From NCBI GenBank assembly GCA_964016885.1, contig OZ024742.1, forward strand, positions 132,370,001 to 132,434,000: a DNA stretch of 64,000 nt. Direction: 5' to 3'. This stretch comes from Eledone cirrhosa. Lineage: Eukaryota. The notes under the pieces are model-generated. The model had not been told where the DNA came from, ran no database searches, and saw only the letters and a program-made list of their open reading frames with translations. The position numbers and the translations under genes are program-made. Shown here in pieces: positions 1 through 62,432 of this stretch. The first letter of the stretch is position 1; the number at the start of each line of letters is the position of its first letter.

Positions 1-1
1 T

Positions 2-2179
2 AAGAAGTATAAATCTGTCTTTCAAAAGGACCTTGATTCTACCATATTGGACCTAAAAAAGTCTAAAAAAATCCATGTCCACTCGGACAAAACTGGTAAC
101 TTGTATCACATGGATATTGAAGATTATAATGAGTTCATATATAAAGAACTCAGGAAAAATTATAAAAAATCTAATAATGCGTCACTCACCAACATCAACA
201 ACAAAACACACAACATAGTAAAAAAACTAAACATTGAAGATAGAACTGAACCTTTGGCATTGAAAAGACCACACTTCAACCTGAAGGATCATAAATCAAA
301 CTTTAACTCAAATCCTTCTATAAGACTTATATGTCCCTCCAAATCTGATATTGGAATAATTAGCAAAAAAAATTTGGATGGAGTCATCCCACAAATAAGA
401 AAACACGTTAATTTACCACTCTGGGAAAACACTTCCCAGGTAATTAACTGGTTTCAAAATATTAGATGTAAATCTTCTGCTTCATTTCTACAATTTGATA
501 TAGATAATTACTATTCTTCTATATCAACTATACTCCTGAACAAAGCATTGTTATTTGCTAAAAATAGATCTAACTTAACTTTGGATGACATTAATATTAT
601 TACACATGCTAGACTAACACTTATTGAATTTCAGAATGAATACTGGACCAGAAACACATATAGTAATCTATTTGATATTACTATGGGTTCAAGCGATTCC
701 GCCCAAATTACTGATCTTGTGGGCCTCTTTCTCCTTTTCAACATAAATGCCTCCTTTCCCCACCTTAAAGGTGGTTTATATCGTGATGACTGTCTTCTTC
801 TTTCCAACAACCTTAGCCTTTCAGAAATAGAAAAAAACAAAAAGCATATTAGAACTTTCCTTAAAGACTATTATAGTCTTCATATTACTTTTGAAAAAAC
901 AAGTAAAGTAGCAAATTTCCTAGATATAACTTTAGACTTAGCTACGGGTATCTACCAACCTTACCATAAACCCAACCAAAACTTACACTACATACACTCA
1001 CAATCTAATCACCCTAAATCTATCCTTAAAAACCTTGCATATAATATATCACTTAGAATTTCTAACCTTTCTTCTAACCAAGATGTATTTGATAAAAATG
1101 CGACCTTCTATAACGAAGCTCTAGATAGAAGTGGCCACAAAAATAGATTAGAATATATACCTTCTACTAAAAATACTATAAACATACAACCTAATATTAC
1201 CAACAAACACCAAATGAAAAGTACACACCTAAATGCCACCCACATTATACCCCAAAATACCAACAACTCTTCTAATATAAAGTATAGTAACTCTCAAAAA
1301 ACTACTCATCATACAACTCTAATAAATGTTAATAATAAAACCCCTAATAAACAAGATAAAACACCTAAATCTATAAATCTAACTAAAAATGTGCGTGGTG
1401 AAATCATTAACATTAATCCTCCTAGTAAACATCACGATACAACCTATAAAAATAATAAACAACATAGAAACCGTAATAGACGAGTTACTTGGTATAATGC
1501 TCCATTTAATTTACAAATTAAGGATAATATTGCTAAAAAACTTTTTTATATCCTAGAGAAAAACTTCCCGCCAAACCACAAATACCATCAAATCTTAAAT
1601 AGGTCTACAGTTAAATTCTCATACTCAACATCCAATAACATAAAACAAAATATAAATGCCTATAATGCATATAAATGTAAGAATACCATAAGTATACCAC
1701 CAATACATCAAACTAACCATAATATCTCCTCAAATACAGAATTAACGAAAGGTTGTAACTGTAGAAACAAAGCAAACTGCCCATTAAAAGGAAATTGTCT
1801 TGTTAACAACATAGTTTATAAATGTAATGTTAAAACTAAAGATTCTATTTGCTCATATATAGGAGCTACTTCTAACAATTTTAAGGTAAGGTTTGATACC
1901 CACAAACATAGTTTTAAAAATGCCGCACTGGCTAATACAACATCTCTAGCAGAAAAAATCAATAGTTATAAAAATAAGAATATAGAATATGATATGACCT
2001 GGAGTGTGCTCAAAAGAGCCACCCCTTATCAAAATAATAGAAATGAATGTAGATTATGTTCCCAAGAACTATTTGAAATAATGAAATCTAAGGATATCCT
2101 ATTAAATAAACGACAGGAATTAATTATATCGTGTAATCATAAACTAAGAAAAACATTTAAATATTATAAACCTAATTAA
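2..2179 (+). CDS. Hydra-type Penelope-like element polyprotein (RT + C-terminal GIY-YIG endonuclease), 5'-partial, uninterrupted frame
   Basis: Frame is open from the window start (KKYKSVFQKDLD...). RT motifs HSDKTGN, KDHK..P..RLI.P, QFDIDNYY, ITMGS, GLYRDD, NFLDI; linker CNCRNKANCPLKGNC (CxCx5Cx5C); VYKC..YIG..F..R...H and CRLC..E endonuclease motifs. Confidence 0.93.
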   Translation, partial: KKYKSVFQKDLDSTILDLKKSKKIHVHSDKTGNLYHMDIEDYNEFIYKELRKNYKKSNNASLTNINNKTHNIVKKLNIEDRTEPLALKRPHFNLKDHKSNFNSNPSIRLICPSKSDIGIISKKNLDGVIPQIRKHVNLPLWENTSQVINWFQNIRCKSSASFLQFDIDNYYSSISTILLNKALLFAKNRSNLTLDDINIITHARLTLIEFQNEYWTRNTYSNLFDITMGSSDSAQITDLVGLFLLFNINASFPHLKGGLYRDDCLLLSNNLSLSEIEKNKKHIRTFLKDYYSLHITFEKTSKVANFLDITLDLATGIYQPYHKPNQNLHYIHSQSNHPKSILKNLAYNISLRISNLSSNQDVFDKNATFYNEALDRSGHKNRLEYIPSTKNTINIQPNITNKHQMKSTHLNATHIIPQNTNNSSNIKYSNSQKTTHHTTLINVNNKTPNKQDKTPKSINLTKNVRGEIININPPSKHHDTTYKNNKQHRNRNRRVTWYNAPFNLQIKDNIAKKLFYILEKNFPPNHKYHQILNRSTVKFSYSTSNNIKQNINAYNAYKCKNTISIPPIHQTNHNISSNTELTKGCNCRNKANCPLKGNCLVNNIVYKCNVKTKDSICSYIGATSNNFKVRFDTHKHSFKNAALANTTSLAEKINSYKNKNIEYDMTWSVLKRATPYQNNRNECRLCSQELFEIMKSKDILLNKRQELIISCNHKLRKTFKYYKPN

Positions 2180-2656
2180 TAACATTATTTTAGAAATTAA
2201 TATATAATTTAATTTAAATGTTAGTTAACCTATAAATTTAATTTAATTAAAATTCTACTACAGATGAGATTATAAAATATTGTGTAATCATAAATTGTGA
2301 AAAACTTTTAAATATTACTAATATATACTTCGTAAATTAATTTATAGATTAATTTTAATTTATTTAACCTTTTATTAAAATTCCTTTACAGATTAAATAT
2401 AACAAAATATCGTGTATTCAAAGACAGAGAAATATTTTTTAATATTATAGACCTAATTATCGTACATTTTAGAAATATATTTATAATTTGGTTTTAATTT
2501 GGTTAACCTAAAAATTTAATTTAATTGGCTTAAAATTAAAATCCTAATACAGATGGATTGTAGAGTGTCATGTAATCATAGACTGAGATAGGTTTTGGAT
2601 GTATACCTAGTTAATATATTCTTTGCAATTTTTGAAAAAATATGTATATATATGTG

Positions 2657-2719
<63 letters not shown>

Positions 2720-3240
2720 TTATGTATATGTATGTGTGTATATATTAATTTTAATTTCTGTTTACCTATAATTATATTCTACTATAGATAAAATACAATA
2801 TCTGTTTTAATTATTATAAACCTAACTAACATATACTATAGAAATTAATATATAATTTTTAATTTAGTTAACCTATAATTTATATTCTACTACCGATGTA
2901 ATACTTTATTTGTTTTTTTTCCCTATTACTGAATTCATTTCCTAATATTGATACCATAACGTTAATAATTTTAATTTAGTTATACTATAATTAATACTCT
3001 ACTACTATTTAACTTCAAAATTCCGCTTCAAATATTATAAACCTAAGTAGTATACACCTTAGAAATCAATATATTAACTATCTTTAATTTAGTTAACCTA
3101 TAATTAATAGTCTACTTATATTAAAATGCATAATTTTGCCTTCTTTCTTACATTTCCTAATACTGAAACTACTATGTAAACACATATTATGATCTAAATG
3201 CAGATTAATATTCTATGTTTCTTGAAACCTATATTTACTA
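2128..3240 (+). repeat. Degenerate tandem duplications (~130-220 bp) of the ORF 3' end
   Basis: Motifs gtaatcataaact, aaatattataaacctaa and ttagttaacctataa recur at about 2128, 2280, 2410, 2570, 2810 and 3030. Confidence 0.75.
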
Positions 3241-3561
3241 TAATCCCCCCCCCCTATTATTATTTGTATTTATAAGCGTGTATATATGTATGTATATGTA
3301 GGTAGGTATGTATGTTTGGGTGTTTGTATGTGAGTATAAAATTACATATGTGCGCATGTAAATAAGGGTGTATGATTGTGTGTATATATGTATATATATA
3401 TATATATATATGCATATATATGTATATATATATATGTATATATGTATGTATCTATGTATTTATGTGGGTATATGTGTGTATGTATATGTATGCGCATGTA
3501 TACGTCTATGTGTATATGTGTGTATGTGTATATATGTACGTATGTGCGCATGTATATGTGA

Positions 3562-3600
<39 letters not shown>

Positions 3601-3603
<3 letters not shown>

Positions 3604-3897
3604 GATGTTGAATGAATGGAGGCTGTATTTGTAGGGCCATATTTGTTTCATTATATATGTTTCAGGGATGTCATATTGACGATGTGTTGTGCCTTCTTCA
3701 GACAAAATACAATATAGACAGTTTTATAAATAAATAGATTTGACATACCGTTCAACATCGACTTGTATTTGAAAAGTTGATTTGGCAGTATTTTGTCTGA
3801 GGAAGGCATAGCGTATTGTTAGTGTGATGTCCCTGAGGTATGTATGATGAAATAGATGTGGTTTTGTAGATGTAGTTTCCATTTATTTAGTATCGTA
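3601..3897. repeat. Inverted pseudo-LTR pair (arms 3601-3710 and 3788-3897) with exclusively G.T mismatches; HHR remnant
   Basis: Manual ungapped alignment gives 77/110 identities and 33 mismatches, all G opposite T. The minus strand of the left arm reads CTGAAGA...GAAACATATATA. Confidence 0.92.
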
Positions 3898-4049
3898 AAT
3901 ATACTCCAAATACTTGTTGAGTGCTTTTATATCAGTTATAAATATTTACTAGTTGTAACCCAACAATTTAAGTATAACTTTCCATATATATATATATATA
4001 TATATTTGTAGTTGATGTGTGTATGTGTATATATATATGTATGTATATG

Positions 4050-5264: not shown

Positions 5265-5855
5265 CTTAATATTTTTCTTTTTTGTTTTTCTTTTTATTTC
5301 TAAATTTATAGATACATTTATAAATAGGCAGTCTGCTGACACCACTAAATACTGACCTCTCCCCCCCCCCCCTACTTTCTGTATCTGGATCTAAATATGT
5401 GTGGCAGTGTTTATGTGCGCGCATTAATGTCCATATGCTTATGATAATAGTATATACACATATATGTGTGTGGGAGTGTGTGTGTGTATGTATGTTCGTG
5501 GTTGTGTGTATGTTTATGCGTATACGCGCGTGTGTGTGTGAATGTATGTATATGTGTGAGTATATGAATGTGTATATATTTATTTTTATATTTATATGTT
5601 TATATGCGTATACGTATTTTATCTGTAGATTATAAACATACAGACACATTAGCCCTGAATTTTTGTATTTACATACATCTTTTCGACATGCGTATGCATG
5701 TGAACATATATTTTTATGCATATCTGTGAACGAAGTTACTTACATATATACATGCACCTAACTGTATAAACTTTTTGTGTTTTCATTGGTCAATTTGAAC
5801 TCTGTTCCCAAACAGACCTGTAATTTTGAATTGTTGTTATTATCAATAAATATAT

Positions 5856-6009
5856 TTCATTATTTCTGAAGACGGCATATATATGTGTTGGTATGTATAT
5901 TTAATTTTGATAGTTTGTATAATTTTGTATAATTTTGTACATAGATCTGTTGAATATGCATGCCAACTCTAACACATATATATCCTAGAAACGATCGTTA
6001 AATAATGAA
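5856..6009 (+). ncRNA. Type I hammerhead ribozyme (PLE pseudo-LTR)
   Basis: Stem I ttcattattt/aaataatgaa (10 bp), CTGAAGA, long stem II (atatatatgtgtt/aacacatatatat), GAAA, palindromic stem III ACGATCGT, predicted GUU cleavage. Confidence 0.85.
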
Positions 6010-6562
6010 CTTTTTTTGTTTAATATAAGGAACTGTTTCATTGTTTTATTCATTATTTTTTTAATATTTTATATATATATATATACATTTTTAAAATCTA
6101 TTTTTTATTTACTTCAATCGGGATTTTAACTTGTAAACTTTTTTTAATTTCTAATTTTCAATAATGATTTCCACTGTGAAACCATAACATCTAGAATTAA
6201 GTTAGTTTCTCTTAGTGGCTTGTGGCAAATTTTATTGTCCAAGCGGAATGTAGGGGTAGTAGTGAGGCCCATTAAGAATCATATTCTGCCACTACCACTG
6301 GGTTTCGGTCAACCGCAAATACCAAGACGGCAAGTAGCAAATTATAGCCATCTCACATTACAGACCTGGATGGGGGTGCTTGTTTTGTCGGGGTAAGGGG
6401 GGACCTGCCTGGGCGAATTTCGTATAGTGTTTGGGTGGTGGATAGTCAACCTCCTTCGGACTCACAAGGGAGCGGACGAAGGTCTCAAGAGCACCTGCTT
6501 TGTCCGTTCCCTTGTCGATTCAATTTGGAATACCTCGAGAACTTAACCTTATTATGTAAGAA

Positions 6563-6814: not shown

Positions 6815-9719
6815 TTAAACCGTCAATCATTTCGAATGTAATATGCTTTGCAAATATATATTTGGTGCTCAGTGAAACAAGCCCAATTTAAACTTGAATA
6901 GATTTAATAAACAAATCAATTTATCTGATTATGTTCTTAACATATTTTCATTGTACTATAACTTTGTTAATGTTGCAATACATGTTTTCAAACAAATTTA
7001 TTTTCATGAACATCCTGTTAGATGATGACATAACAGAATAATAACATAACGAAAAATCATGGGAAAGAGGAATTTCAGGTGCTATCTAAGCAATACAGGT
7101 GAAAATAAATACTTTTGTATGTTATTTTTCAGATGCTGGAATAATGACCTTCACATGTTACAACAGTTATTTTGGAAAATCAATAGATTTTCAAATCTGA
7201 TACAAATTCAATTAAGAAGTGTTCATAAACAACCCTGACGGAGAAAACAATATGCTATCAGCACTACTGAGCACTTATTTCAGACAATAGTTGAATGGTA
7301 TTGGAAATCACTTCAAACAAAGACAGTTGTGTCATATAAGACTGTATGAATGATAATCATATTCAAGACAATAACATACAAGGACCTCCACTATATAGAG
7401 AAAAATCAACTAGGAAATATTCTAGGGACAAAAATGTAAGAAAATCAATAACAAGAACACATTCATGATAATTTGATACATATAATTGCAAACGATTCAT
7501 TCTCATAATGTGTAAAAAATCCTTCGAACACATTTATGCCCTGTTACCAGAGAATATTTGCCATGAGAACCTCGAGTGTCATGTTGATGTAGTGTTAAAT
7601 ACTCGGACTGAGTTGATAGAAATTGAAGTATCTATTAGAAAGATTGGTAATAGCATTAACAAAGCAAATAGCTAAAGTTGGAGAACTACAATATTGAACA
7701 TTACATCATCTTCACATTTAGAAACACCAGCAAGTATATCACGCCATAATACCTGTCCGATTTATACATATGTGGATATGTGTATGGATTTATGCGTATG
7801 TGGATATGTGTGTGTGAGTAGATGTTTGTGTGGATGTTTCTCAAATGCCTTACTCAAGCTAGTAATACAATAACCAAGAGAAATATTATGCTATGTCTCC
7901 TCCTAAATTCCACATATTTATCTTATGACCCTACAATTGTAAACGACTTCCAAATTATTTAGGGAAATGAACGAACGTTTTACTTTCAACTAGTAATATT
8001 ACCTAAATACATTTCCAGTTAAACAACATCAAAAGCAACTGCAAAATAGAGCAACAAAACACAATTTGTTGATTCTCTCATTACATATGCTACATATACA
8101 TTAACAAACTCTATGCCAGTGTTCACATCGGTAGACACATGCTAAGAAACATCTCACATAGAAGCCGTTCATCTGGCATAGCATTTGTCCTAATGGTTAA
8201 ACAAATGAAATATATATTCGTCACAGTATACGAGGCAAGTAATCCGAATAGCCATAGGTGTTACCAGTATTTTGCTCTACTGTGTATGTATGTGGGTGGG
8301 TGTATTTTTAGTGTGTCTCCTGTGTATATGTGTGAATGTATGTGTGTGTATGTCAACGCAACAGTGACTGCATATTATCACCGTAACATATATATGTTTG
8401 TCGGTAAAATCCTTACACATAGGATTATCAAATCATTTACTGTCATATTTCTTCATGATTGCTGCTGTTGAGGCCGCATTGCACAAACCTCAGTTCGTAA
8501 AATTATATGTCTGCGACACAGGCATTCATGTGGCATCAACGGAAGTCAGAGATTAACATAGATTCGGCATAAGGAAACATTAGCTGTGATCGAGGCTTTG
8601 ACATATTCAGGCTAGAACTGAAAAACTCAGTGATGATCTGACTATCATCATATGGAAATAAGACCTACGGTTAAATACAGATGAAGTGAATGATAATGAC
8701 ATTAAGATAATGACTCCTCCACCAGTCTCCTTTACCGAGATTATGGATAGTTTGGACATTTTAACTGAACACAAGACGATGCCGGTGGCGTTGTGTTGCT
8801 GAGACAGTGAAAAATTATCTTTAATAACAGAAGAATAAAGAAAGACATACAAGTACATTAAGAAAGAACAGCTAGTTAGTTTGTACACAAATTAATGTCT
8901 GAGTCCCAAACAAATATATATTATTTTCATGAATTACCATCTTCAATGTACTCTGTGAACTTTCATTGTACGCATGTAGATGTATTTTTGTAATGACCTC
9001 ACGTTTTCATCTCCATATTGTCGTTAATTAGCCGAAATACAGTTTCGATTGAAAAAATATCACGAATTTTTAAATGATATCGTTTCGGTGTACATATTTT
9101 ATTGTACAACTGAATTTTATGCGCAACTGTTTGATATGTGCACTTGTAATAGATATCTTAAGGGGATTCAACGTACAAAAATGTGTGTCAATGCTGGTTC
9201 ATTGAATTACAGGTACAGTCCATCGGATGGACTTCCCAGCAGATTCCGTCTAGCCAACTTCACTCACAAATGCTCTACTGAACAATTCATGTAATAGAAA
9301 CAAGTCTATTTCATAACTGCTCCATTTTAGAGAATAATATTTTACTTGAGCGCAAATATAACAATTTGGAATGTAAGAAAATCTTAAAGGTCAATTAGCC
9401 TTGAACGGAATAGTTAACCGCAGTGGGATTTAAACCAGTTCTCAAAGAACGGATACAAGAACATTAAAGCATTTGTCTGTCGAACTAACGAGTCTGCCAG
9501 GCCACTATTTTACACCAGTTCATAAAATACATTGCCACGTGTTCCTCCTAACATATCAATAATGAGTATGGCAAACGGAATCGTCCCTGCTATGTACCTT
9601 GTTACGCATATAAAGACAGTTTATTAACATATAATTTGAAATGATGTAATCGGAATAATGGAAACACCACGAGGTAGCGTAATCAGTTTTGATAGTCTAT
9701 GTTGCTGAAATTAAAGAGA

Positions 9720-10833: not shown

Positions 10834-11588
10834 ATACAAATAATTAAATAAACGTATATAAATAAATAAATACGTATATGACAAGCTCACACACATACCT
10901 TCATCTAAATACACAAATGTTCGGAGACGACGTCAACCAAAACACGACGTACACATATACACACACCCAACATACGTACTAAACCCGCATACTCACACAG
11001 ACGCAAAACTCACGTATACACATAACCAAAAGCATATGTACAAGAATATATAAAATATACGCCATAACATATACGTACGAGAAAGTATACATACCTTCAC
11101 AAAACATACAGGTAATATATACTTACCTATGCAAATAAGTAATGGTATGAACATAACATATACTTAGCTACCACATCAAGACGTAAAATATCCGCGTATA
11201 GATCGTAGTATTCGTTAGGGTATAATGTGGGGCTGTAATACAGGAAAGTTTTGTGCAATTTATGTTTACAAGGCGAAATTGCCTCAGATTTTTTGTTTAA
11301 AATGTGGTCTGTGGCGTAGAGTATTTCCAGGGCCTCAGCTGCGCAGATCTCACATCGTCTTTTATTTCCGTTATACGATCTAGCCCTAGCTAGGTTCTCC
11401 CAATGTAAATTATATTGGGTGTGGTTGTCTTTTAGTCTCCAGATATAAGCTGAAAGTGACGTCATATTCATTCTTAGAGGGGAACGAAAAGAATGGGTAT
11501 GCATGTAAAGACGCTGCTTGAATCTATTGGCGGTTAACCATGGGACGTGGGTGTTTCAACCTTACATTTGTAGACAATGTTACTAGAG
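10208..11588 (-). mobile_element. 5'-truncated Hydra-type PLE (GIY-YIG fragment, 3' UTR, pseudo-LTR)
   Basis: ORF 11127-11504 (HTHSFR..TSLSAYIW..CEICAAE..LNKKSE..CKH) is homologous to 57160-58550. HHR-like motif with CAGAAGA core at 10220-10295. Confidence 0.9.
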
Positions 11589-12009
11589 GTTTGTATGTGT
11601 ATGTATGGATATGTTGATATATATGTGTGTATGTATGTATGTGTATATGTATGTGTATGTATATATATATACATATATATGTGTGTGTGTATGTATGTGT
11701 GTGTATATATGTGTGTATGTATATATGTGTGTGTATGTAAGTGTGTGTGTGTGTGTGTGTGTTTGTGTACTTTTAAGAAACCACTGGTAAATGAAATAAT
11801 TGCCTTATATTGTTTATTACATAACTATTAAGCTATGTAACCTACATAGAACACTCTTTTTTCCTGGACCTTTCCGACGGAATTACTACATTTATACAGC
11901 TCCAACCGGGATTGATTGAAGCATATTCTATATTACATATTTGGTTGGCACTTTCCAGCCCGATTAGTTGAGCACTCTACAGTTTTCAGGAATTTAACCA
12001 ACATACACC

Positions 12010-35497: not shown

Positions 35498-38110
35498 TGA
35501 AAACAGGGAGAAAGAGACGATTATGAGGAAGAAAAATATATTGTATTCCTTTTCTTTGTCTCTCACTCTCTCTTTTTTCTCGGTTAGAAAATGATTAAAA
35601 CGAAATGTTTTACGTTGTGTGAAGTGTTAAGGTATTAGTTGATTTATTTATTATTTAACAATGGCATTTATTTATCTATTTAATTATCGTCTATTACCGG
35701 TTTCTGCATTTATATGCATTATCAAATGATAGTGAAATGTATTAGTGTGATGTCGCACATGTTAAACAGAAGGTGCAGAAAGAATAATGTTATTTACAAA
35801 CAAGGTTTAAGAAGTGAAAAGAAAAAAGAAAAAGGAAAGAAAAACGTGCATAATGTGGAACGTAAAAAGTCAATGTGGAAGAAAAAATAATAATGTTATT
35901 TACAAGCACAGTCATTGAAGTTAAGCAGTTCAAAATGTGTTAATATCGCACGAGTCCTTAGTTGAACCATGGTTCCGTGAAGGAGTCAAATGGTGGACTG
36001 TGGTTTGATATGATTTCCCTTTTTAGAGAGTTAATATGCAGGGGGAAGCAATTCTTGCTGGGTGATATTTAATTTATTTGAGAAAAAGGATTAGGTAGGG
36101 TGTGAGGGAGGTAACTCTTGTAAATGTTTGATGGTTTGTTGCAGTTTTAGATTGGTCCGATTGGTCCGATTTTTAGGTCATTGAGTAGTGGTTTAAATTG
36201 ATTAATGAAATGTGTTTCCTCATTGGTGCGTTGGATGAAAGTAGCGTTGTCTATGAATTTGTAAATGGGGAAAATTTTAAAGTTTGGATGTTGGTTGAGA
36301 GCACAATTGGCGATGTGTTCACTAAATGCTATCTTTCTGTATTCCTGTATTTTAATTTGTGATTTATGGACGGTCTTACGTTGACGGAGGCTGTTTTTTT
36401 GTCTCTCCTATGTAGTGCTCTTGACAGCCTGAGCAGGTCAAAACATAGATAAGGTTTTTAGATGCACATGTAAAGTTGTGTTTAACTGTGAAACGTTGTC
36501 CTTGTTTAAAATGGAATGTTGAATCTTCTATTAGATTTATGCATATGCCACAGTTGGGCCTTCCGCATTTTTTTACTATAAGGTTTATTGTGAGGTTTTG
36601 TTGGATTTTGGCTTGTGTGAGGATGTTTTTTATGGATTTGGGTTGTCTTTTGCTCTTTATGATGTTGTGTGTTTGGAGGATATTGTTCATTCTTGGGTCT
36701 CTTTTTAGTAAAGGAATATTCTGGAGGATGGTGTCGAATGCCTCATTGTTGAGGGGGTTGTGTGTGGAGATGTATGGTAGAGTTTTTTTGTTGCGGTTCA
36801 CTCCTGGGTTTGGGGTGTCTGAGTTCCTGGATGTCTAGTTTTAGGGCACGTTGGAATCCATTGGTGATTAGGGATGGCGGGTAGTTTCTGCTGATAAGTG
36901 TGTTTTTAATTCTTCTAGTCGTGTATAGCATGTGTATTTATCTGAAACTATTGTGCAGATCCTTCTGGCTAGGTTATAAAGTATTGCCATTTTGGTGTGT
37001 CTAGGGTGGCACGAGTTGAATGGAAGGTATTGTTTGGAGTCTGTGGGTTTGTAGTATATGTCTGTTTCTATTTTGTTGCTTGTCTCCTTGATGAGGATGT
37101 CGAGGAAAGGGAGTTGTTCATAGCTGTAATCCATTGTGAATTGTAAGTTATTGTTGAGCTCATTCAGAAGGGTTTTTAACTCAAACACTCTATCTATACT
37201 TTCATGCCAGAGGATGAAGGAGTCGTCGAGATTTCTCTTCCAGTTCTTTTCTATGTGTTGGTAGAAGTGGTTGCCGTATTTGTCTAGAACTTTTCGGTAC
37301 AGAATGGTATCCAAATATCCCATGACAAGGTTGGCGTATGAGGGGGCCACTTTCGTGCCCATGGCAGTCACACATTTCTGTCTGTAGTATTTGGCATTGA
37401 ATTCGAAGAAACTGTTTTTCAAAATGAATTTGAATCCCTCCAACACAAATTCTTTAGGGATGCGCTGTGGAAGTTCACTGTGGAAATGTTCACTACGGAA
37501 ATTTTCCAATCCTTTTTCTTAAATAAATTAAATATCACCCAGCAAGAATTGCTTACCCCTGCATATTAACTCTCTAAAAAGGGAAATCATATCAAACCAC
37601 AGTCCACCATTTGACTCCTTCACGGAACCATGATTCAACTAAGGACTCTTGCGACATTAACAGATTTTGAACTGCTTAACTTCAATGACTGTGCTTGTAA
37701 ATAACATTATTATTTTTTCTTCCACATTGACTTTTTACGTTCCACATTATGCACGTTTTTCTTTCCTTTTTCTTTTTCTTGTCACTTCTTAAACCTTGTT
37801 TGTATATAACATTATTCTTTCTGCACCTTCTGTTTAACATGTGCGACATCACACTAATACATTTCACTATCATTTGATAATGCATATAAATGCAGAAACC
37901 GGTAATAGACGATAATTAAATATATAAATAGATAAATAAATGCCATTGTTAAATAATAAATAAATCAACTAATACCTTAACACTTCACACAACGTAAAAC
38001 ATTTCGTTTTAATCATTTTCTAACCGAGAAAAAAGACAGAGTGAGAGACAAAGAAAAGAAATACAATATATTTTTCTTCCTCATGATCGTCTCTTTCTCC
38101 CTGTTTTCAT
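35498..38110 (-). mobile_element. 5'-truncated Neptune-type PLE (RT + GIY-YIG, disrupted) with ~600 bp inverted terminal duplication
   Basis: AMGTKVAPSYANLVMG, WKRNLDD, LPFLDI, YYKPTD..SCHP, KCGRPNCGIC, NLIYVLTC..YIGET at 36130-37509. 35498-36090 is the reverse complement of 37510-38110. Confidence 0.92.
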
Positions 38111-44770: not shown

Positions 44771-45139
44771 TATATATCTATAATTGGTGTGGGATGCTTA
44801 AAGCGTTCGTAAGCAATATGCCGTTTGAGCACTCGATGCTCTTAGAGAGCAGAGTATAATATCACATAAGAAACGGATCTTGCGATTTCAGATTTAGGTT
44901 TGTTCATTGCATCGATCATACCTCGAACTGCTCGCCAGAGAAACGAATGTAATATGTCTTATAAATCTTATTCATAGCACTACTGATTCTACGTTTCTTA
45001 TGTGATATATATATATGTATGTATATGTATATTTCTATATACAACATACACACAGAGGAGATAAAGCACGTGGCAGATAGTGAAATAGGTAGAGGAAATA
45101 TATCAAGAGCAACTAATAACGAGGACGTATATAGACGAA

Positions 45140-53987: not shown

Positions 53988-54331
53988 AATGTAAGCTATC
54001 GCCGTATTTTGACTAAAGAAATTAAAGAAATTATTTAGCCTGGTAGTGGGGTTAAGAACCCTCGGATAAATGGAAAAATATGAGTATTGACGTACAGGGG
54101 AGTCGAACGCAGATCTTTGGTTATCCAGACTACTGTGCTACCATTTACACCAACACATCACCCATGTGTTGGTGTAAATGGTAGCACAATGGTCTGGATA
54201 ACCAAAGATGTGGGTCCACTCCCCTGTATGTCAATACTCATCTTTTTCGATTTCTCCGAGGGTTCTTAACTCCACAACCAGGTTAAATAATTTCTTTAAT
54301 TTCTTTAGTCAAAATACGGCGATAGCTTACA

Positions 54332-54333
<2 letters not shown>
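53988..54333. mobile_element. Head-to-head palindromic tRNA-derived SINE-like element in (TA)n
   Basis: Arms 53988-54158 and 54164-54333; tRNA-like head tggtgtaaatggtagcac...gttcgactccc. Confidence 0.7.
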
Positions 54334-55795
<1,462 letters not shown>

Positions 55796-55818
55796 ATCTT
55801 TATATATATATATATATA

Positions 55819-58634
55819 TTTATTAAAATAACAGATTAAAGTTTAAGCAAAGAATCGCTGCTAAATCCAGCATCGTTGATTTCATTGATGACGCACCGAT
55901 TAGTTTTAGGGTAATCCTTAGTTACAGCATTATGTAGTAGTTGATGGTAAGTACTGCGCTCCACTTGATATAAGTTGCCAGTTTTGTCGGAATGGACGTG
56001 CACGGCGTTAGAATCCTTAATAGAACGAATTCTATTCTTCAGGTCTTGCTGGAAGGAATTGCTCATATTCCGAAATTTGATGCTCCGAATGAGTTCCAAG
56101 ACATCATTTTCGAAGGGTAGCAGTACTGGGTTCCACAATGGTTATTATAGGTTTTAAATCCAAATTTATCCTATTTGTTGTCTACTTTTCGCGGATTATC
56201 GAAATAAAAGGCACGCAAACGCAACATTTTAATGAACGCGTCTGTTTTCAGTATCAGGAGTTTTATGTATGTTTTCCTGCTTGGTACGGATATGTTCTTT
56301 GTAGAAATATTCAGATGCTGTTTCTGCATGATGAATATAAGTCAGTAGAGTGCACAACCGAGGGAGCCAAATAGTAATAATAATAAATTTGAACACTAAA
56401 ATCCCTGGCCTTTTCCTTCTTTTCTCTATCAAGGACGAATTCCCCAACGCGGGCGGTGGTTTGTACCGTGACGATGGTCTTTTGACCATGACTAAGTGCG
56501 GACCTCGTGCTTGCGACAGGTTCAGAAAAGAACTCACAGCCTTCTTTAAAGGCTTCAACCTCTCTATACAGGTTGAGGCCAATCTCTCGGTCGTTAATTA
56601 CCTCGACGTTACCCTCAATTTATTGAATGGGTTGTATTACCCGTATAGAAAGCCCAACGATACGCTTAATTACATAAGTTAGCATTCCAACCATCCTGCC
56701 AGCATAACCAAGAACATGGTAAGAAACGTTTCGTTGAGTCTTTCCCGTCTTTCCACCAACGAGCGTATTTTCAACGACCATTCCACTTATTACAATGAAG
56801 CTCTTGCTCGAAGTGGATTTGTCGTTAAGGTTACATATATAGAGTACGAAAATAGACCTAGAAGAAATAGATCCCATCGCATTTGTTGGTATAACCAAGC
56901 ATATAATATGGAGGTGGCCACACCTTTAGCTAAGATCTTTCTTTCCCTTATTACGAAGCATTTTCCCCCTACACATAAACATAGTAAATTTTTTAATAGA
57001 AATACTATTAAAATGTCTTACTCTAAGACTCGTAACCTTGCACATAACATCACAGCTTCAAATTTAGCTAAACTACCTAGCCGTAGGAACACGTGCAATC
57101 CAGTATTTAGTTCTAACTGTAATTGTAGGAATCGGGCTGATTGCCCCCGATCCGGGATTTGCCTCTCTAGTAAAATTGTCTACAAATGTAAGGTTGTAAC
57201 ACCCACGTCCCGTAGGGTCTACATAGTGATAACCGCCAATAGTTACAAGCAGCGTCTTTACATGCATACCCATTCTTTTCGTTACCCTCTAAGAAGGAAT
57301 ATGACGTCACTTTCAGCTTATATCTGGAGTCTAAAAGACAACCACACCCAATAAAAGTTACACTAGGACATCCTAGCTAGGGCTAGATCGTATAACGGAA
57401 ATAAAAGGCCATGTGACCTCTGCGCCGCTGAGGCCCTGGAAATACTCTACGCCACAGACCACATCTTAAACAACAAATCTGAGGCAATTTCGGCTTGTAA
57501 ACATAAATTTCACAAAACTTTCCTGTATTATAGCCCCACGTTATACCCTAACGGATAGTACGATCTATACGTGGATATGTTACGTCTTGATGTGGGAGCT
57601 AAGTATATGTTTGTTTATTCCTTTACTTATTTGCATAGGTAAGTATATTTTACCCGTATGTTTTGTGAAGGTACGTATACCTTCTCGTACGTATATTTGA
57701 TTGTTATGGCGTATAATTTGATATATTCTGGTACATATGGTTTGGATATGTGTATACGGGAGTTTTGCGTCTGTGTAAGTATGCAGGTTCGTACGTATGG
57801 TGGGTGTGTGTATATGCGTACTTCATGTTTTAGTTGACTTACGTCTCCGAACATTCGTGTATTTATATGTAGGTATGTATGTGCGCTTGTTATATACGTA
57901 TTTATTTATTTATATACGTTTATATAATTATTTATTTATTGTATACACGCATACACACAAACACATATTTATATGTGCGTGGTTTTGTATACCTATGGCG
58001 AGTGTTTTCGCGTATGCTTGTGTATGTACGTATTTGTTTGCGTGTATGTATTTATTTATTTCTATTACTTCTGTATTGTATTTATTTACTTTGTTCTTAA
58101 CTCTGTAGCGGAGATTCATTTGGTCTCCTAGTTACAATTTTAGTCTACGACTTCTGCTATACCATTTACGTGGTTGTGTCTTTGCGTGCTATTGTTCTCC
58201 ACGCTCCACATATGACGTATTATCTTCGTTTTTTCGTTCATTGCCAGAGAACGTCTCTATGCACCACCTAAGAGAACAATAGTCCATGACCTCTTTTATA
58301 CCATAAACGTGGTTCTGTCTTTGCGCGTAATTGTTTTTCACCGCTCCTATTAATGACGTTCTTTCCCGTACTTTGCCAGCGAACATTTCCACGAACCAAA
58401 GTATCGTCTTCCTGTCTTCATCCGGTTGCAACGTTTATTGAAATATCCATTTCTGCGTTTACAGATTGACTTTGTTAGTTTCAGAAGATCCCGTTAAGGG
58501 TGAAAGCAGCGATTCTGTGCTTAAACTTTAATCTGTTATTTTAATAAATATTTTCTCTACGGTTCTTATATATTTGATATATATTTATCCTTATCGAGCC
58601 CTCTTTGGATTTTAGTCTTCAAATTTATTATTAT

Positions 58635-62097: not shown

Positions 62098-62432
62098 ATT
62101 ATTCAACATTTTTACAAATGGAAATATTCGCATAATTAAAATATATACTTTATTATATATATTTCAAAGGTACTGTGCTGTTTTTTTCAGTACGTCCTCA
62201 TCAGACAAAATATATGATTTGATATACGACATACCACTACGGTCATGATTATTCTCTTCCCGTATTGTCAGAATTGAATAATCAAGACCGCAGCATTATG
62301 TCATATATCAAATCATATTTTTTGCTGATGAACACGTAGAGAAAAAAACAGCACAGTACCTTTGAAATATTTACAATAAAGGATATATTTTTATTATGCG
62401 AATATTTTGCGTTTGTTAACATTTTGAATAAT
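62098..62432. mobile_element. Inverted pseudo-LTR pair with hammerheads
   Basis: Arms ~62100-62244 and 62286-62430; CTGATGA-ggacgtactg/cagtaccttt-GAAATATATATA. Confidence 0.8.

Follow-up and report, generated by a model that had tools for sequence, protein, structure and literature searches.

Retrotransposon hairpins with ADAR-type A-to-G changes apparently fixed in the genomic DNA of Eledone cirrhosa

Edits made in RNA are normally lost along with the RNA, and reverse transcriptase copies inosine as G. In avian retroviruses, proviral DNA of avian leukosis virus and Rous-associated virus has been described as A-to-G hyperedited (Hajjar and Linial 1995; Felder et al. 1994; both via the review PMC12925331), with about 50% A>G in an inverted repeat and LTR according to the accessible parts of that review. 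APOBEC3 editing of the LTR retroelements IAP and HERV-K is likewise the work of a host deaminase and leaves strand-biased mismatch clusters in integrated copies, but through C-to-U changes on cDNA that appear as sense-strand G>A and need no dsRNA (PMC2873906, text available in part). ADAR hyper-editing of inverted repeats in metazoan RNA gives dense A>G in dsRNA, with 5' G depleted in all animals studied and the 3' G preference absent in invertebrates (PMC5625713, in its accessible portion). Furthermore, it has been hypothesized that A-to-I editing leads to A>G mutation through reverse transcription, on the basis of statistical correlation at host sites (PMC10209271, partial text). EN+ Penelope-like elements (PLEs) are known for inverted terminal repeats (pLTRs) with palindromic junctions, for hammerheads with a palindromic helix III, and for AT-rich targets (PMC3846280, PMC4209133, PMC11167929, each as far as the text was accessible; the hammerheads are described in PMC4209133). 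The word "editing" is absent from the main text of PMC3846280, and "ADAR" from bioRxiv 10.64898/2026.07.22.740005. Germline ADAR and transposons are discussed in PMC12599553, whose accessible part does not mention the route considered here.

The hairpin analysed in this study resembles the avian cases in that an ADAR-type A>G cluster lies in an inverted repeat and appears to have been fixed in DNA by reverse transcription; the edited share of As was 31-39% in cases with a first round of editing, against nearly 50% there. Those cases are retroviral and, in the accessible account, apparently single isolates, whereas the elements described here are endogenous PLEs and a LINE, with edited copies that are amplified, occur at several loci and are still accumulating changes. 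Unlike the APOBEC3 clusters, the changes are confined to a stem and run A>G on the sense strand, the G>A expected of APOBEC-type editing not being what was found. They share the dense dsRNA pattern and the neighbour preferences of metazoan RNA hyper-editing, which consists of differences between RNA and genome, whereas ours are genomic and heritable. Compared with the EN+ PLEs described so far, the particular feature is a captured foreign pLTR hairpin with a changed hammerhead core. The flow of information from RNA edit to DNA is the same as in the hypothesis of PMC10209271, in place of whose correlation we have direct sequence cases, only in retrotransposed copies and with no in-place correction of host genes. 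The route as such is known from avian retroviruses; what appears to be new is that it is recurrent, amplified and accumulating in germline retrotransposon families. A literature search, with subscription papers and supplements largely outside it, returned no report of ADAR-edited hairpins that are fixed, amplified and ratcheting in such families.

The hairpin lies in a 64-kb stretch of DNA (the window) within a 3.0-Gb assembly. The window starts inside a copy of a Penelope-like family, A, whose 3' UTR contains a cassette derived from another Penelope-like family, B, namely its end with the hammerhead. Family B has at least 40 copies with 98-100% match to each other, and its ORF shows about 67% nucleotide identity to that of family A. 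The family-A frame is open over 725 aa in the window and over 783 codons from stop to stop with the upstream DNA. Its Penelope-like label is based on architecture and on Atlas neighbours with RT/GIY-YIG/HTH_animal families (score 0.95-0.98); Pfam matched no family directly in this frame, nor in the frames of family B and of the PLE at locus L172. Family A has the pLTR with hammerhead, the tandem or inverted 5' pLTRs and the 5' truncation of PLEs. Its 3' pLTR is common to the copies and often inverted at their 5' ends, and many copies have inverted and tandem 3' ends. The following features, all on the plus strand, are relevant here; L166 and L167 are free copies of the cassette outside family A.

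1..2179, plus strand: 3' portion of the ORF of family A, putatively RT and GIY-YIG-like; its frame opens at about -172, outside the window.
2180..3600, plus strand: part of the family-A 3' UTR that precedes the hairpin and closes with a (TA)n tract; siblings match at 93-100% in the non-repeat parts.
3601..3710, plus strand: left arm, an inverted piece of the family-B terminal repeat (pLTR) with 17 A>G; 17 A>G and 1 T>C against L166, 17 A>G and 2 C>T against L167.
3711..3787, plus strand: 77-nt loop, continuing the inverted B pLTR, unedited; 0 A>G and 3 other changes against L166.
3788..3897, plus strand: right arm, the direct B pLTR, which contains a type-I hammerhead; 16 A>G relative to the A/T reading.
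3898..3985, plus strand: unpaired tail of the B pLTR, nearly unedited; 1 A>G among 4 mixed differences against L166.
5600..6072, plus strand: family A's own 3' pLTR, with hammerhead CUGAAGA at 5866-5872, GAAA at 5988-5991 and palindromic stem III at 5991-5998.

The (TA)n tract before 3601 is the apparent insertion site of the cassette. Family A's own hammerhead is intact-looking by inspection and fold, and a scan of the window with Rfam at gathering score gave 0 matches, hammerheads included. In addition, the window holds decayed PLE frames of other families (11127-14110, 36376-37518 and 55058-57354) and, at 15000-19000, a tandem array whose period is about 490 bp.

The two arms align without gaps, and 33 of the 110 pairs are mismatched. 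As the sequence-only reading had described, all 33 mismatches are G opposite T on the plus strand, with 17 of the Gs in the left arm and 16 in the right; A·C mismatches and transversions are both at zero. The plus strand folds into a single 110-bp stem (-154 kcal/mol, z -18), the minus strand reaching only -62 kcal/mol. Controls were the 16 other inverted repeats found in the window after masking of simple repeats, with a minimum of 50 bp and a gap of no more than 3 kb; their mismatches comprise 27 of the G·T type, 30 A·C and 68 transversions. Compared with this mixed spectrum, the ratio of 33:0 has P=8e-18 (P=2e-8 against transitions alone), so that the G·T-only pattern is far beyond chance. 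Both inverted pairs that had been named as internal controls are indeed mixed, with 4 G·T, 1 A·C and 7 transversions at 53988-54333 and 2, 6 and 9, respectively, at 62162-62367 in the pair at 62098-62432.

Mismatches of the G·T type alone give no direction, and they could also stem from a G·C ancestor that underwent C>T deamination, either APOBEC-like or by methyl-C decay. Measured against unedited source copies, the direction is A>G, because free unedited copies of the same cassette exist. L166 and L167 have the loop, junction and tail of the window. In the arms the window differs from L166 by 34 A>G and 1 T>C, of which one A>G and the T>C are changes of L166 itself, and in loop plus tail by one A>G among 7 changes. 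The proposed ancestor of the arms, in the A/T reading, was expected to match free unedited copies, and it was found as real DNA: it differs from L166 at one position per arm, and young family-B copies depart from it at about 3 of 110 positions, compared with about 32 for the G/C reading. A family consensus with G/C at these sites, named earlier as the contrary outcome, is thus not what the B donors carry; of their 110 positions, about 105-108 agree with the A/T reading and only 74-79 with the G/C reading, which refutes C>T deamination and leaves it a practically negligible probability. Two mismatches, 3801 and 3811, do read C>T against the young-subfamily cassette L167; L166 is closer in the arms. 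Both coincide with a difference between B subfamilies. Position 3811 still segregates in family A (16/42), and 3801 is fixed there, its ancestral state being less certain.

Among family-B copies (L069-L098), two arm positions with A>G and one with C>T set the young subfamily apart from the older, and L097 and L098 show further isolated A>G, possibly from light editing within B itself. A fold-back junction of one kind is present in two B subfamilies and in a distant family akin to the window hairpin at 62098-62432 (L165, L166, L167), which suggests a fixed fold-back point in these pLTRs.

The A>G changes are confined to long dsRNA, and the copies of family A agree in this: among about 42 of them the loop has no A>G variant site, and the variant sites of the tail comprise 3 A>G versus 6 T>C. 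In the right arm, the hammerhead has its CUGANGA box at 3797-3803, and its GAAA box has become GAGG at 3835-3838, with G at 3837 and 3838 in 41 of 42 copies. The unedited donors keep the GAAA box and the palindromic stem III, so that the CUGANGA plus GAAA core of a type-I hammerhead is intact in the donors and lost here. Judging from the conserved core, GAGG in place of GAAA should inactivate the captured hammerhead. With this core changed, the edits may have functional effects on the element.

An exact search for the junction motif gave 42 matches, 21 on each contig strand: 39 edited family-A copies (10-17 A>G in the right arm), two unedited cassettes, in which the same B junction occurs free and outside family A, and one match in another family (L165, which is not a B cassette). 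Every family-A copy with the junction is edited (39/39), and all 40 scored hairpin candidates in the assembly match at 93-100%. L167 had been flagged as a family-A copy by a loose test (79-80% match 2 kb away); the flag is false.

Full family-A copies have 27-38 Gs at the 87 ancestral As of the arms, three partial copies 22-28. At 54 of these 87 As at least one copy has G, versus 5 of 87 Ts seen as C. Without a tree, variant sites in the arms of about 41 copies amount to 23/56 for A>G and 5/87 for T>C (P=4e-7), and those in ORF plus UTR to 51/1449 and 51/1270 (P=0.54), without skew outside the arms; in the ORF, the counts are 17 and 16. The private A>G rate per 1000 is 3.6-6.0 in the arms and 0.9-1.4 outside the hairpin. 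Since copies lie on both contig strands, it can be seen that the bias tracks the sense strand of family A. A tree was built on non-arm sites with 33 of 38 full copies, five being dropped for fewer than 1000 control columns. Extra Gs at 3682, at 3790, and at 3704, 3705 and 3850 are common to clades of this tree, and those at 3639 and 3851 arose twice. Parsimony required 53 A/G steps at 59 unfixed arm As versus 3 T/C steps at 87 Ts. The four-gamete test was failed by 33 of 120 site pairs, and recombination or conversion may inflate the step counts; the tree rests on control sites.

The siblings thus show edits that are both shared and cumulative, one of the checks proposed with the sequence-only reading. 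Its account of an inverted pLTR pair in the 3' UTR of the plus-strand PLE that was hyperedited and reintegrated is supported by the sense-strand edits, and the reading needs correction in three respects: there was not one reintegration, as at least 39 copies exist, the pair comes from a different PLE family, B, and the sparing of As after G does not extend to all siblings (see below). A founder event that was amplified to at least 39 copies, which keep gaining A>G, is supported.

Nine pairs of copies at the same locus differ by 13 distinct substitutions of mixed type, none of them a new arm A>G. Hence, the A>G bias arises between insertions, at the RNA stage, and not in resident DNA. This bears on an A>G process at DNA level, either by ADAR or another deaminase acting on DNA or RNA:DNA hybrids at hairpins or cruciforms, or by misincorporation during reverse transcription of structured templates. 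ADARs do edit the DNA of DNA:RNA hybrids in vitro (PMC12925331, accessible part). However, besides the lack of arm A>G after insertion, both free cassettes and 28 of 30 related palindromes (see below) are unedited in DNA. In a cruciform the two strands are equivalent, whereas here the changes of both arms are on a single strand, and an error of reverse transcriptase is not expected to spare As after G or to end at stem ends. We regard such a process as very improbable.

For the G alleles in DNA reads, the earlier expectation was not borne out. A screen of sequencing runs for this stretch listed none from RNA. Four outside sequencing runs compared at a likeness of 88, which are partial, leave 3602-3627 uncovered and may come from another species or population, contained essentially only unedited A alleles at the edited sites; they gave the unedited family, not the edited arms, and the G alleles rest on the assembly. 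This could point to a sequencing or assembly artefact at inverted repeats, and mismatch clusters from Sanger-trace errors are documented, as G-to-A (PMC2873906, in the part available). Against it, 39 junction copies, distributed over both strands, have the G pattern in common, nested haplotypes follow the tree of other sites, and identical hairpins elsewhere in the assembly are clean; an artefact is therefore extremely unlikely.

Several family-A copies (L035, L039, L049, L053, L063, L066, L169 and L170) have their 5' truncation or inversion point in or beside the hairpin (about 3601-3824), where reverse transcription may have stalled. L169 and L170, at first candidates for new events, are truncated copies of this kind. 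In L044, an unedited arm of the older B subfamily follows directly after the edited hairpin (6823-7075), and a family-A clade of L038, L043, L044, L045, L051, L060 and L065 has a rearranged UTR segment after 2438 in common (85-86% match).

Edited hairpins are not limited to family A. A sister subfamily, B', forms perfect 193-bp palindromes, of which 28 out of 30 examined differ from the reference copy at 0-3 sites. The B' palindromes L099 and L100 carry 56 and 49 A>G, respectively. In the paired part of L099, 56 of 56 changes are A>G, with none in its 85-nt unpaired extension, and the edits are on the sense strand of a LINE and end where pairing ends. This LINE is a young APE-RT element, and L099 occupies a (TA)n tract of its 3' UTR, upstream of the LINE terminal motif. 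The carrier LINE, which we take to be RTE-like, has an intact frame of 1212 codons and departs from the majority of its siblings in 2 of 1900 columns; the empty site of the insertion is visible in 7 of 30 LINE siblings. An unedited parent of L099 was not among the 59 B/B' loci checked, and a B pLTR was found downstream in 0 of 30 LINE siblings. The LINE (L129-L158 and L067:2450-6088) is very young, with 40 of 40 scored copies identical over 401 bp. It has C-terminal zinc fingers and two 3' UTR length variants with a conserved terminal motif before (ATGT)n-like tails; Pfam detected RVT_1 and Exo_endo_phos in the L067 copy.

Two narrow motif searches led to five more edited loci among 12 new places examined. 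L168 has 21+19 A>G and L171 has 19+17. L172 has 27+10 and lies downstream of another PLE frame on the same strand; no near-identical sibling of this hairpin was found, the best match being 80%. L173 has 10 A>G. L174 has 33-35; two smaller palindromes from another family share the edited strand there, and a B end without edits lies downstream of them. Since the edits of L174 affect the inverted piece and spare its direct partner, an additional template-switch step is needed to explain it; L173 and L174 suggest template switching onto edited RNA. About 1.8 kb between two B copies at L174 (3210-5000; G000:C22, ~27.426-27.428 Mb) contain the inverted B tail and the two small palindromes of an unrelated repeat family, all with A>G on one strand (14-19 A>G each against relatives). 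The stretch looks like edited RNA plus flanking sequence captured by template switching. The assignment to a sense strand covers family A and the LINE of L099, not L100, L168 and L171. Together with family A, the seven further edited loci would represent at least eight events, which is a lower bound.

Five of nine new motif matches examined were rejected (L175-L179): in L175, L176, L178 and L179 one change alone accounts for the match to the edited-arm motif, and the copy at L177 is old and diverged. The G·T-rich flanks of L128 and L113 are simple repeats and not due to editing, and their palindromes are unedited. L179 contains another hairpin with a skewed spectrum (248-609; 17 A·C, 1 G·T, 9 transversions), for which no donor was found and which is akin to window 44875-44990.

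The neighbourhood of the changed As was examined as a signature of the enzyme. In the window, the fractions of edited As by 5' neighbour are 18/40 for T, 13/28 for A, 2/10 for C and 0/9 for G (G versus rest, P=0.012), in exact agreement with the earlier hand count. The statement that As after G are unchanged holds for the window copy, but siblings carry G at four such sites: 3800 (10/42), 3850 (5/42), 3620 (2/38) and 3836 (1/42). Pooled over the window, L099, L100 and L174, the fractions are T 93/204 (0.46), A 61/153 (0.40), C 14/63 (0.22) and G 2/47 (0.04), with P=9e-8; these contexts are not fully independent because the four loci share related donor sequence. A 3' G preference is absent. 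The pooled bias agrees with the invertebrate hyper-editing motif, as given in the accessible part of PMC5625713. In the genome itself, PF02137 matched 12 stretches at four genomic places, with deaminase domains that are ADAR2-like (E 8e-80) and ADAR1-like (best match). Accordingly, the features of an ADAR cluster are found together: A>G only, one (transcribed) strand, confinement to dsRNA, neighbours in the order U>A>C>G, and ADAR genes in the host.

These data also bear on selection, which might have favoured G·U wobble in a functional RNA hairpin, or acted against a perfect DNA inverted repeat, using ordinary mutations. The edited stem is stable on the sense strand only, with folding energies of -153 (sense) and -61 kcal/mol (antisense) compared with -168 and -166 kcal/mol for unedited L166; the edited form spread until it reached at least 39 copies, and selection could help to keep the edits. 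Yet C>T at G·C pairs would likewise be acceptable to selection for wobble, and there are 0 such changes against L166 and, among copies, a C>T allele at 1 of 23 arm C sites; nor can this selection yield the avoidance of 5' G or the 56 changes in single-copy L099, with a carrier that differs so little from its siblings (2/1900 sites). As the source of the changes it is largely refuted and, in our view, very unlikely.

We consider it about 90% probable that ADAR edited the carrier RNA and that retrotransposition fixed the edits in germline DNA; ADAR as the enzyme and inosine in the RNA are what we infer from the pattern. The process would start with family B, a young PLE that appears often to insert back-to-back inverted pLTR copies into (TA)n tracts, forming hairpins that would be perfect at birth; inverted pLTR pairs in such tracts are a known habit of PLEs (PMC3846280, PMC11167929, both in accessible parts). 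Inside the transcribed 3' UTR of an active retrotransposon, such a hairpin would fold into long dsRNA, in which ADAR would deaminate about one third of the adenosines. The reverse transcriptase of the carrier would then read inosine as G, resulting in a new germline insertion with G·T mismatches on the carrier sense strand. In family A, an edited copy would have become the master and then been amplified. As both free cassettes are unedited, the first edits may rather have come after the cassette had entered family A. In later cycles, the remaining As could be edited further because G·U pairs keep the stem, more slowly, at about one per transposition branch, which would constitute a one-way ratchet.

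With copies from before and after the change in one genome, A-to-I edits appear to have been turned into inherited DNA repeatedly and in two unrelated retrotransposon clades. If so, transposition-competent RNA would be a target of ADAR in the germline or early embryo. More broadly, ADAR and retrotransposition together probably act in this genome as a recurrent, heritable A>G mutator that is specific for strand and structure. Any hairpin on retrotransposed RNA, whether of a PLE, a LINE or a flank captured by template switching as L174 suggests, would be rewritten with one third of its As changed, and masters would ratchet with each cycle. The marks would record germline ADAR activity, the number of RNA passages and the strand copied by the PLE reverse transcriptase, in family A the sense strand; for PLE reverse transcription, an antisense template has been proposed (PMC3846280, partial text). 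Inverted repeats with G·T mismatches only would offer a cheap genome-wide signature of the share of ADAR in repeat evolution. In one family-A copy (L049), the edited cassette tail is followed immediately 3' by a (TA)n tract that holds a perfect unedited B palindrome (7810-8267), and this fresh palindrome is the predicted substrate of a next editing event.
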